Source of the DNA: an uncultured Lachnospiraceae bacterium
GTDB taxonomy: Bacteria > Bacillota > Clostridia > Lachnospirales > Lachnospiraceae
Direction of reading: 5' to 3'
Assembly: GCA_934351925.1 (NCBI GenBank)
Contig: CAKRJT010000002.1
Span: forward strand, 45,039-109,038
DNA: 64,000 nt
In this document: positions 23,132-24,920 of the stretch, in pieces
How positions within the stretch are numbered: position 1 is the stretch's first letter
How the letters are laid out: the number at the start of each line of letters is the position of its first letter
Notes under the pieces: generated by a model
What the model saw: the letters and a program-made list of their open reading frames with translations, nothing else
Databases searched by the model: none
Told to the model about the DNA's origin: nothing
Made by a program: the position numbers and the translations under genes

Positions 23132-23546
23132 ATAATTCCTCCCTAAGCCATGCTTGAAACCGCACCTGAAATGAACCATTGTACCATGTACAAAGTGGTA
23201 AAGCAGTCCGGTTCATGTCGAACATATGTTTATCCATTGAGTACAATATATCAAATACACCAACTTTTGTCAACTACCATAAGCTGGCAAATTAATTTAT
23301 AAAATTAATGAACCACTTTAAAGCATAATGCAGCAAGTCCACAACTAATATGTCTAAGCGGCATACCCTGTCTCCGCATTTGTTTTCTAAATACTTAATA
23401 CATTTTATATCCCTTTTCCTTCAACCACTCTATAACCTCCTCATATAAAATGGTAGTGTCATAAAGCTGCCACGAATATTAATCTGCACAAACTATCTCT
23501 ATCTAATTATATTACTATATTATTTAGTTGACATCTACCCATAGTA

Positions 23547-23596
23547 GGCAAAAATGGGACAGGAGAAAAAGGGAACATGAGTCAAGCTCCTGTCCC
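23547..23596 (-). terminator. Terminator of the GGDEF-RHH gene
   Basis: The 10-bp stem GGGACAGGAG (23556-23565) / CTCCTGTCCC (23587-23596) is followed on the minus strand by ATTTTTG. Confidence 0.6.
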
Positions 23597-23626
23597 TTTT
23601 GACCCCTGTCCCATCCAGCCGGTTAA

Positions 23627-24280
23627 TCAGACGTCATACTTTTTGAGCAGCATATCCATAGCTTCCCTCAAAAGTATCGCCTCTCCTATGCCCTCCCTTT
23701 TAGAAAGAAGGTTGAGCCTCTTTAGCTGGTCCTGCGTGTAATGTGATGTCTTTGGAACCATTTTCTCTTCCTTCGCAAGAGCGACTTTGTTTCTACCGTT
23801 GTATTTTGCCCTGAACATGGCGCTGTCCGCCATTCTGACAAGCTCCTGATAGCGCGATGCATTCTCAAATGCCGTCGCGATGCCTATTGAAATGGTCATC
23901 GCCGTTCCATCGGGAAGCTTCACATCATAATTCTTCCTCATGTCCTCCATCAGCAGAAAAATGTCCTCTTTCTCCATCTGCCCCTTAAAAATAAAGCCAA
24001 ATTCATCTCCACCCACTCGATAAAGTGTTCCGTTTTCACCAAGATAATTCTTGAGATGATTTCCCGTCTCGATTATAACCCTGTCTCCCTCATCACGGTT
24101 AAAATCACTATTAACCCTTGCGAAATTGTCCAAATCGACCAACGCAATGATGATATTGTCGCCTTCCTCGGCATTCTCCGCCGTCAAAAGCGCCTGTAAG
24201 TCCTCCTCAAAGCCCTTGCCTTCCCTCAAGTTTAATGCTTCGTCAACCTTTTTGTGATGTTCTAATTTTATGGTTGCCAT
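23627..24280 (-). CDS. Minimal GGDEF diguanylate cyclase fused to a C-terminal ribbon-helix-helix (CopG/ParD-like) domain
   Basis: The active-site region RVGGDEFGFIF is intact, and there is no RxxD I-site 5 aa upstream. The last ~42 aa (KTSHYTQDQLKRLNLLSKREGIGEAILLREAMDMLLKKYDV) fit the RHH strand-helix-helix pattern. Confidence 0.8.
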   Translation of the reverse strand: MATIKLEHHKKVDEALNLREGKGFEEDLQALLTAENAEEGDNIIIALVDLDNFARVNSDFNRDEGDRVIIETGNHLKNYLGENGTLYRVGGDEFGFIFKGQMEKEDIFLLMEDMRKNYDVKLPDGTAMTISIGIATAFENASRYQELVRMADSAMFRAKYNGRNKVALAKEEKMVPKTSHYTQDQLKRLNLLSKREGIGEAILLREAMDMLLKKYDV

Positions 24281-24335
24281 AGTGTATCCTCCCTTTCAAA
24301 ATATAATTGTCGTTACTTTGCAAATTGTATTTTGC

Positions 24336-24358
24336 AATATTATTTTTGAAATAATATT
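24336..24358. promoter_or_regulatory. Palindromic operator candidate O1
   Basis: AATATTATTT-TTG-AAATAATATT has perfect 10-bp inverted arms and lies 56 nt upstream of the GGDEF-RHH start. Confidence 0.45.
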
Positions 24359-24400
24359 TACAATAACATATTATATTATTTAGCATTATTTGTCAAGCAA

Positions 24401-24423
24401 TATATTATTTTCCAAATAATATA
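24401..24423. promoter_or_regulatory. Palindromic operator candidate O2
   Basis: TATATTATTT-TCC-AAATAATATA has perfect 10-bp inverted arms. Its centre is 65 bp from the O1 centre. Confidence 0.45.
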
Positions 24424-24450
24424 AGTACATATTATTGCAAATTGACATAC

Positions 24451-24493
24451 AAAAAGACCGCCAACCACACCATCATGCGGTTCGCGGTCTTTT
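24451..24493. terminator. Bidirectional rho-independent terminator after atpC (operon 1)
   Basis: The structure is A5-GACCGCCAACC...GGTTCGCGGTC-T4. Confidence 0.7.
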
Positions 24494-24515
24494 ACACCCA
24501 TATAGCTTAGGGTTA

Positions 24516-24920
24516 CTAGCCCTTGAGTTCTATTCTGGTAAGCGCTCTCTTCAGCGCGTACTCGGCTCTCGCCATATCTATCTCGCCCTCGTGGGAGGAT
24601 AATCTGCGCTCGGCTCTGATTTTCGCCTCGTTGGCACGGTTAATGTCTATCTCGTCCGGCCACTCGGCTATCTCAGCGAGCACCATAACGCTCTTCTTTC
24701 CTATCTCAATGAATCCGGAATGAAGGGCTGCCGCCTTCACATTGCCTTCAGCGTCGTGGATATGTGCCACGCCCGGTGAGAGTATCATGGCTGTAGGGGC
24801 GTGGTCAGCGTATATACCGACCTGTCCCTCCGTCGTGTTCAGCTCAACCATGCTGCTGTCCCCGGCATAGAAGGTTCTGTCAGGCGTTATTATTTTAAGT
24901 TCAAATAATTTGTCTGCCAT
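24516..24920 (-). CDS. atpC: F1 ATP synthase epsilon subunit (operon 1)
   Basis: 134 aa with typical epsilon sequence; last gene of the canonical operon order. Confidence 0.9.
   Translation of the reverse strand: MADKLFELKIITPDRTFYAGDSSMVELNTTEGQVGIYADHAPTAMILSPGVAHIHDAEGNVKAAALHSGFIEIGKKSVMVLAEIAEWPDEIDINRANEAKIRAERRLSSHEGEIDMARAEYALKRALTRIELKG

Follow-up and report, generated by a model that had tools for sequence, protein, structure and literature searches.

Known diguanylate cyclases, the GGDEF-domain enzymes producing cyclic di-GMP (c-di-GMP) as a second messenger, are under the control of sensor domains and of allosteric inhibition by their product. The c-di-GMP networks include dozens of cyclases per cell, and how the contribution of each of these enzymes is set is a central open question. 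The closest described system is PdeL (YahA) of Escherichia coli, an active EAL phosphodiesterase with a LuxR-type helix-turn-helix (HTH) domain. PdeL binds to a palindromic site of its own promoter and stimulates its own transcription except when c-di-GMP is high, so that it works as a binary switch (PMC5052742; bioRxiv 10.1101/2021.10.01.462762). The published trigger enzymes of c-di-GMP signalling are phosphodiesterases only, and PdeL is the only enzyme of c-di-GMP metabolism doubling as a transcription factor that was found in our literature search. Here we describe a gene from an uncultured Lachnospiraceae bacterium (assembly GCA_934351925.1, contig CAKRJT010000002.1, positions 45,039 to 109,038; this stretch of 64,000 nt is hereinafter the window) that encodes a 217-amino-acid protein in which a GGDEF domain is followed by a C-terminal ribbon-helix-helix (RHH) domain. 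Sequence comparison suggests, with a probability of about 0.6 by our estimate, that this GGDEF-RHH protein is a self-regulating, sensor-less cyclase that represses its own promoter via RHH operators.

The likeness to PdeL lies in the union of a c-di-GMP enzyme with a DNA-binding domain, in the presence of a palindrome in the own promoter (to which binding is predicted in our case) and in the coupling of the two by feedback. However, PdeL degrades c-di-GMP, carries an N-terminal HTH and activates from a far-upstream site, whereas the GGDEF-RHH protein is a predicted synthase with a C-terminal RHH domain, and its putative operators overlap the -35 box and the transcription start, implying repression, that is, a sign opposite to that of PdeL. 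Gating by c-di-GMP, which has been shown for PdeL, is only conjectured for the GGDEF-RHH protein. The latter appears to be an enzyme-repressor of c-di-GMP metabolism that would combine a synthase with an RHH domain. If this is the case, it represents a new control logic for a second-messenger synthase, with the enzyme wired to its own promoter, and the synthase counterpart of PdeL.

Other bifunctional enzyme-repressors are PutA, which joins an RHH domain to a proline-catabolic enzyme, and BirA, which joins an HTH to a biotin ligase. As in our proposal, an enzyme with a DNA-binding domain represses its own gene or operon, and PutA employs an RHH domain to this end. The catalytic domains of PutA and BirA are, however, unrelated to GGDEF, the RHH domain of PutA is N-terminal, and binding by these proteins is gated by the substrate or product, which is conjecture here. 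The RHH proteins of the Arc/MetJ/CopG type bind inverted or tandem repeats, typically in their own promoters. The GGDEF-RHH protein resembles them in the beta-alpha-alpha unit, in a predicted operator of about 21 bp with two half-sites that would fit a dimer of dimers, and in the location of this predicted operator in the own promoter. These proteins, however, are of small size and either act alone or are gated by a small ligand domain, whereas the GGDEF-RHH protein contains 170 enzyme residues before the ribbon. The cyclases PleD, WspR and DgcZ resemble the GGDEF-RHH protein in having a GGDEF domain with all active-site residues, but contain N-terminal REC, CZB or stalk dimerisers and, mostly, an RxxD inhibitory site (I-site), whereas the GGDEF-RHH protein has neither a sensor nor an I-site. 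An RHH domain is also tied to c-di-GMP in CdbA of Myxococcus xanthus, a nucleoid-associated protein that binds DNA globally and binds c-di-GMP via the RHH; the strand of CdbA exposes K, S and Y, comparable to the K-T-S-H-Y-T of the GGDEF-RHH protein (PMC7156744). CdbA lacks a GGDEF domain, and no sequence relationship between it and the GGDEF-RHH protein was detected.

The gene and the parts of its product occupy the following positions in the window.

23627 to 24280, minus strand: GGDEF-RHH gene, from the list of open reading frames (ORFs) and its translation; 217 codons, ATG start, TGA stop at 23627-23629.
24288 to 24293, minus strand: ribosome-binding site GGGAGG, read from the sequence, 7 nt 5' of the ATG.
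23786 to 24229, minus strand: GGDEF domain, residues 18-165 (Pfam PF00990, E=8.7e-24, 84.5 bits); key residues D49, D51, N57, D66, R88, GGDEF 90-94, K159 and R163.
23753 to 23785, minus strand: conserved linker VALAKEEKMVP, residues 166-176, recognised by family conservation and a low predicted local distance difference test score (pLDDT, about 64).
23630 to 23752, minus strand: RHH domain, residues 177-217; strand KTSHYT, helix 183-196, helix 200-216.

A first-pass annotation made from the letters of the sequence had described a bare GGDEF domain with an intact RVGGDEF motif, without an input domain or an I-site, and with an RHH tail, and had proposed a Pfam search as a check. The search bears out this description. 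Both PF00990 and PF12651 were matched, the latter (RHH_3) at residues 181-215 with 30.7 bits against a gathering cut-off of 21.6; Pfam detected no further domain in the 217-residue protein, which lacks PAS, GAF and REC domains and membrane segments, and the RVGGDEF motif is intact at residues 88-94. The protein is 100% identical to the matching database cluster, which is annotated with the same two domains. There is also a weak match to Antitox_RHH (E=0.017), which is stronger in some relatives, and the tails of the relatives match RHH_1 and Antitox_RHH as well. In NCBIfam, diguanylate-cyclase models alone were retrieved, every one of them below the equivalog cut-off; TIGR00254 scored 83.6 bits, exceeding its cut-off of 37.4. 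The profile of the family matched the active cyclases 3ign (2.5e-41) and PleD (1.3e-35) from the PDB over the GGDEF part only, and the best PDB match of the tail profile was a CopG-family regulator (7by2, E=0.011).

The structure of the single chain was modelled with AlphaFold2 from an alignment of 47 family members (mean pLDDT 90.5, predicted template-modelling score 0.83). The model consists of a GGDEF fold and a lower-confidence linker (residues 171-180, pLDDT about 64), followed by the tail. The tail, for which the first-pass annotation had let its reading stand or fall with an RHH-like model, takes the beta-alpha-alpha form in the full-length model, with KTSHYT (177-182) extended and with helices at 183-196 and 200-216 (pLDDT 84-91); the same two helices are seen when the tail is modelled alone. 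A Foldseek search with the full-length model retrieved solved active GGDEF domains (E~1e-13, template-modelling score normalised to the target up to 0.88).

The evidence for self-regulation comes from the region upstream of the gene. The predicted operator is a perfect 21-bp palindrome, ATATTATTT-N3-AAATAATAT, two copies of which bracket the promoter.

24368 to 24396, minus strand: sigma-70-type promoter; TTGACA at 24396-24391, 17-nt spacer, TAATAT at 24373-24368; 10 of 12 positions match.
24401 to 24423, no strand: predicted operator O1, TATATTATTT-N3-AAATAATATA, a perfect palindrome directly 5' of the -35 box.
24336 to 24358, no strand: predicted operator O2, AATATTATTT-N3-AAATAATATT, 10 of 10 positions complementary, located 3' of the -10 box, over the predicted transcription start.
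24385 to 24403, no strand: O3, a degenerate third copy found by repeat search, with the -35 hexamer at its centre.

The centres of O3 and O2 are 47 bp apart, and the same geometry is found in several relatives. O1 and O2 are the only perfect 8-N5-8 palindromes in the 3.07-Mb genome. When up to two mismatches to ATATTATTT-N3-AAATAATAT were allowed, no occurrences were found in shuffled versions of the window, and O2 was found with zero mismatches. Six copies of the octamer AATAATAT, which make up the palindromes, lie within 93 bp, in the 190 bp upstream of the gene, and this is the only cluster of the octamer (at least four copies within 150 bp) in this genome, which has 45% G+C. A position weight matrix (PWM) built from the orthologous sites and run on the whole genome assigned the two top scores to O2 (35.0 bits) and O1 (28.1 bits), followed by sites at 19.4, 18.0 and 17.9 bits, mostly within ORFs. 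A wider regulon was considered but is not supported by the whole-genome palindrome and PWM scans, which yielded nothing convincing beyond the own promoter.

A 10-bp exact direct repeat, TTGCAAATTG, at 24318-24327 and 24435-24444 (117-bp spacing), brackets the operator and promoter array. It contains the palindromic hexamer TTGCAA and could be either the site of another factor or a chance repeat.

The palindrome is conserved across the relatives of the gene. A strict pattern search identified the architecture in 146 species genomes; the family spans at least two bacterial classes, with most members from Lachnospiraceae of the rumen and gut. From this pattern scan, with one genome per species, 80 of the 146 loci with a relative were kept; these come mostly from metagenome-assembled genomes (MAGs) of rumen and gut Lachnospiraceae, but also from Acetatifactor, the cultured Butyrivibrio sp. 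MC2013 and two Treponema MAGs. The footprint ATTATT-N5-AATAAT, with at most one mismatch of 12, was sought within 300 nt of the start codon in the 79 loci with enough upstream sequence, and was found in 77 of these. The upstream regions contain 130 such sites (5.05 per kb) compared with 5 in 560 kb of flanks (0.009 per kb), an about 565-fold difference in density. The operator consensus derived from the orthologues is GATATTATTTCnGAAATAATATC. There is no conserved neighbour gene, the best neighbour cluster being present in 10 of the 79 loci; thus, the palindrome is retained while the neighbours differ and travels with the gene rather than with the locus.

The position of the palindrome points to its function. 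In the 36 loci with a clear predicted promoter, the operator centres fall between -50 and -31 (29 sites) and between +10 and +19 (20 sites), and an operator overlapping the -35 box or the start region is present in 33 of these loci. Several relatives have the -35 hexamer within the spacer of the palindrome (ATATTACTTGACAAATAATAT) and another site about 47 bp downstream. Such placement on the promoter is typical of repression and implies this mode of action for the putative operators.

Some of the loci in this set are unusual. One MAG contig (CAMEEX010000050.1) carries two GGDEF-RHH copies (L006 and L011) that are separated by about 6 kb, share 99% and 94% identity with the query and each have operators, which could be a true duplication or an assembly artefact caused by strain mixture. 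The copies in the two Treponema/Treponemataceae MAGs (L050 and L083) are 58-61% identical to the query and have the Lachnospiraceae-type operator; this could reflect either erroneous binning or a horizontal transfer that took place in the gut or rumen.

Within the protein, conservation is highest in the RHH tail: among 120 relatives, the median identity is 88% in the tail, compared with 60% in the GGDEF core and 36% in the N-terminus. In close relatives, K177, T178, H180 and T182 of the strand are invariant, as are E172, K173, M174 and P176 of the linker. The tail profile also detected GGDEF-RHH genes in 15 of 210 genomes of a GC-rich class of the same phylum. In this clade, the strand is [KR]S[CN]YY in place of KTSHYT, and the upstream regions harbour paired TATATA-type elements, for example, GTATATATG...CGATATATAAGGAGG; ATATAT/TATATA is present upstream in 12 of 13 loci, at 13 per kb compared with 0.057 per kb elsewhere in these loci. 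The concerted change of the strand and of the repeats is as expected if the RHH domain reads the repeats, although the sample is small and the occurrence of AT-rich promoters in GC-rich genomes is a partial confound.

From the computed uniqueness, conservation and promoter position of the operators, we infer that the GGDEF-RHH protein very likely binds its own promoter and, somewhat less confidently, that it represses this promoter. The first-pass annotation had suggested a c-di-GMP-producing or c-di-GMP-sensing transcription factor. The DNA-binding part of this suggestion is strongly, albeit indirectly, supported by the presence of the operator at nearly all orthologous loci and by the strand-linked operator change. 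The role appears to be narrower than that of a general transcription factor, namely autoregulation of the cyclase gene, given that high-scoring sites occur only at the own promoter and that there is no conserved neighbour.

The case for catalysis rests on the computed domain identity and on the intact active site. In an alignment of 121 cluster representatives, at least about 57% identical, the metal-binding D49 and D51, the guanine-binding N57 and D66, D92 of the motif and the phosphate-binding K159 are present in all 121 relatives, and conservation is nearly as complete for R88 (120), G91 (119), E93 (120) and F94 (119); R163 is present in 109, and the first glycine of the GGDEF motif varies (G/A/S/Q). 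By motif position, we take the PleD equivalents to be D327 for metal binding, N335 for N57, D344 for D66, and K442/R446 for phosphate binding; the mapping of N57 and D66 to PleD agrees with the profile alignment to the cyclases in the PDB. The degenerate DxLTGLxNRR turn (DEALNLREGKGF) had suggested loss of guanine-binding residues, but this is ruled out by the invariance of N57 and D66. The position of the I-site is occupied by GENG in the query, no RxxD is found among the commonest strings at this position in the 121 relatives, and of the two residues, R is seen at its position in one relative and D in two. Because the catalytic and guanine-binding residues are essentially invariant among the relatives, the GGDEF-RHH protein is probably an active diguanylate cyclase, and synthesis of c-di-GMP by this protein appears likely.

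The 3.07-Mb genome contains 23 GGDEF, 8 EAL and 5 PilZ matches; therefore, readers and degraders exist for any c-di-GMP made here. The GGDEF-RHH gene is by far the shortest GGDEF frame of the genome and contains its only RHH_3 match. One of the PilZ matches (G000:C27:10946-11167, outside the window) contains an in-frame TGA and might be a pseudogene or reflect a sequencing error.

Under the proposed mechanism, the RHH domain would form an obligate intertwined dimer that holds two GGDEF domains together and thereby stands in for the usual N-terminal dimerising sensor; the paired GGDEF domains might suffice for basal c-di-GMP synthesis. RHH-mediated dimerisation would be a plausible principle of cyclase activation. 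One dimer would bind per 8-bp half-site, which is nearly symmetric (ATA-T/A-TAT), and with the half-site centres 13 bp apart, the 21-bp operator would accommodate a dimer of dimers, as in Arc. Occupation of O1 and O3 at the -35 box and of O2 over the transcription start would block RNA polymerase. The level of the protein and hence the share of this enzyme in the c-di-GMP pool would be self-limited, so that transcriptional feedback would stand in for the missing I-site.

An effect of the nucleotide on DNA binding is a more tentative extension of this mechanism. In its specific form, that of a trigger diguanylate cyclase in which the nucleotide state of the GGDEF domain (GTP-loaded or product-bridged dimers) sets the operator affinity of the RHH domain, this extension is doubtful. 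If it were true, the protein would be a producer as well as a reader of c-di-GMP at its own promoter. Then, promotion of binding by c-di-GMP would yield a homeostat, and release of the protein by c-di-GMP would yield a bistable ON switch. Possibly, too, the 90-bp operator array assembles as many as six dimers and so scaffolds encounters between GGDEF domains, in which case DNA would activate catalysis.

Several observations weigh against a self-repressing cyclase. Some distant members of the family have degenerate motifs (GGDAH, AADEF, SGDQF, GKDEF) and keep the RHH domain; therefore, catalysis is not universally required in the family. A Foldseek search with the isolated 52-residue tail monomer returned no match with E<3, the monomer being too small and lacking the paired ribbon. 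The placement of the operators relative to promoters is based only on promoters predicted by consensus. Finally, the distant member L087 has no palindrome upstream. This gene (G683:C2:45088-48243) closely follows another ORF, and its product, in which the motif is SGDQF, with the catalytic glutamate replaced, and the KTSHYT strand is kept, is possibly a non-catalytic, operon-embedded variant.

The loss of the motif residues in distant members that retain the RHH, along with the greater conservation of the RHH compared with the GGDEF domain, would fit a nucleotide-sensing transcription factor, in which the GGDEF domain is a sensor of GTP or c-di-GMP, not a significant source of the latter, and the RHH controls target genes; moreover, RHH proteins with extra domains are typically ligand-gated (PMC7156744). 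We nevertheless consider this alternative unlikely because (near-)invariance of the catalytic residues in 121 relatives is unusual for a pure sensor and because no convincing operator outside the own promoter and no conserved neighbour were found. A regulator that acts only on itself has no output unless the enzyme is the output and, with the catalytic residues constrained, this output is most simply c-di-GMP. Less probable still is that the RHH is a dimerisation module only, which activates the cyclase, and that the palindromes belong to another regulator or are incidental AT-rich sequence. In favour of such a role, dimerisation is required by GGDEF domains and obligate for RHH domains, and the isolated tail had no significant structural match. 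But the palindrome accompanies the gene in 77 of the 79 loci despite differing neighbours, and its uniqueness in the genome makes a global regulator unlikely. Furthermore, the strand that faces DNA in RHH proteins would not need conservation for mere dimerisation, and yet K177, T178, H180 and T182 are invariant and change together with the operator in the other clade.

The relationship of the tail to antitoxins brings up one more alternative, a toxin-antitoxin-like or anti-phage module, with an antitoxin-type RHH keeping a nucleotide-producing effector in check. Apart from the weak Antitox_RHH match, which is stronger in some relatives, the closest stand-alone relatives of the tail are antitoxin-like RHH proteins of 86-103 residues, the distribution of the family is patchy, and a degenerate member is encoded on a conjugative Bacillus plasmid. 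However, PADLOC gave no match, there is no conserved partner or effector gene, the GGDEF domain is bona fide, with guanine-specific residues, and in the genus of the query, the gene adjoins the atp operon, all of which renders a defence role very improbable. We therefore retain the self-repressing cyclase as the preferred interpretation. This hypothesis is directly testable given the small size of the protein (217 residues), the sharply defined predicted operator and the availability of a cultured host (Butyrivibrio sp. MC2013), and the protein together with its operator might find use as a compact orthogonal repressor part.

The remaining elements of the transcription unit are the following.

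23545 to 23620, minus strand: intrinsic terminator of the GGDEF-RHH gene; 14-bp G+C-rich outer stem and a U run, RNA fold of -44 kcal/mol, z=-6.4.
24451 to 24494, minus strand: atpC terminator, upstream of the gene and insulating its promoter; RNA fold of -34.2 kcal/mol, z=-6.4.
24516 to 24920: atpC ORF, upstream of the GGDEF-RHH gene.

The gene is predicted to be monocistronic because, together with its promoter, it is enclosed by two terminators. An RNA element at the 5' end was considered as an explanation of the palindromes and was ruled out: the folding of the 5' untranslated region is weak (-11 kcal/mol, z=-2.3), and Rfam has no match anywhere in the window. Accordingly, the palindromes are regarded as putative protein-binding sites, not as RNA structures. 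The terminator region contains repeated GGGACAGG units (23557-23613), and a similar GGGACAGGGGTCAGACCCCTGTCCC hairpin is located upstream of the orthologue in a sister species (L002). The octamer of the terminator unit occurs 140 times in the genome compared with about 94 expected, a mild enrichment.

The survey of the architecture that the first-pass annotation had recommended revealed a widespread yet patchy distribution. The query is matched by more than 1000 clusters at 90% identity, and of the 120 listed, nearly all contain the two Pfam domains; the architecture recurs in database clusters and is therefore not a chance juxtaposition. Of the top 150 clusters at 50% identity, no fewer than 51 show the GGDEF-RHH spacing, including 40 of the minimal form. 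Among 300 other genera of the same taxonomic family, 4 had a GGDEF-RHH gene, as did 2 other genomes in a sample of 400 from the phylum. The family appears unstudied: no title or abstract describing a GGDEF-RHH fusion was found in a literature search that left most subscription journals outside its range, and the members are named only 'diguanylate cyclase' in databases.

Variants of the architecture are found among the relatives (P0131, P0137, P0142, P0144, P0153, P0163 and P0246). Some are extended at the front, yielding REC-GGDEF-RHH and GGDEF-GGDEF-RHH, and others continue after the RHH with REC, FtsK-gamma (a winged-helix DNA binder), FliG_C, a fragment of FlhA (FHIPEP) or Clp_N. The C-terminal fusions are either real or result from gene-call read-through into the neighbours, several of which are motility genes. 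The nearest stand-alone relatives of the tail (L089-L095), type II antitoxin-like proteins encoded in 86-103-residue frames (MVRKQTYI...LIREALD...HDRYLYG), might represent the source of the fused RHH domain.

A phage or plasmid origin of the gene was also considered and rejected: the search of phages and plasmids yielded only distant GGDEF matches and one degenerate GKDEF-RHH protein. The latter is encoded on a conjugative plasmid of Bacillus toyonensis (pDC11_2, NZ_CP103779.1; L110:2423-2992) and is a 189-residue 'diguanylate cyclase' with the GKDEF motif and an RHH tail of the KSNYY class. This member comes from a cultured strain of the Bacillus cereus group.

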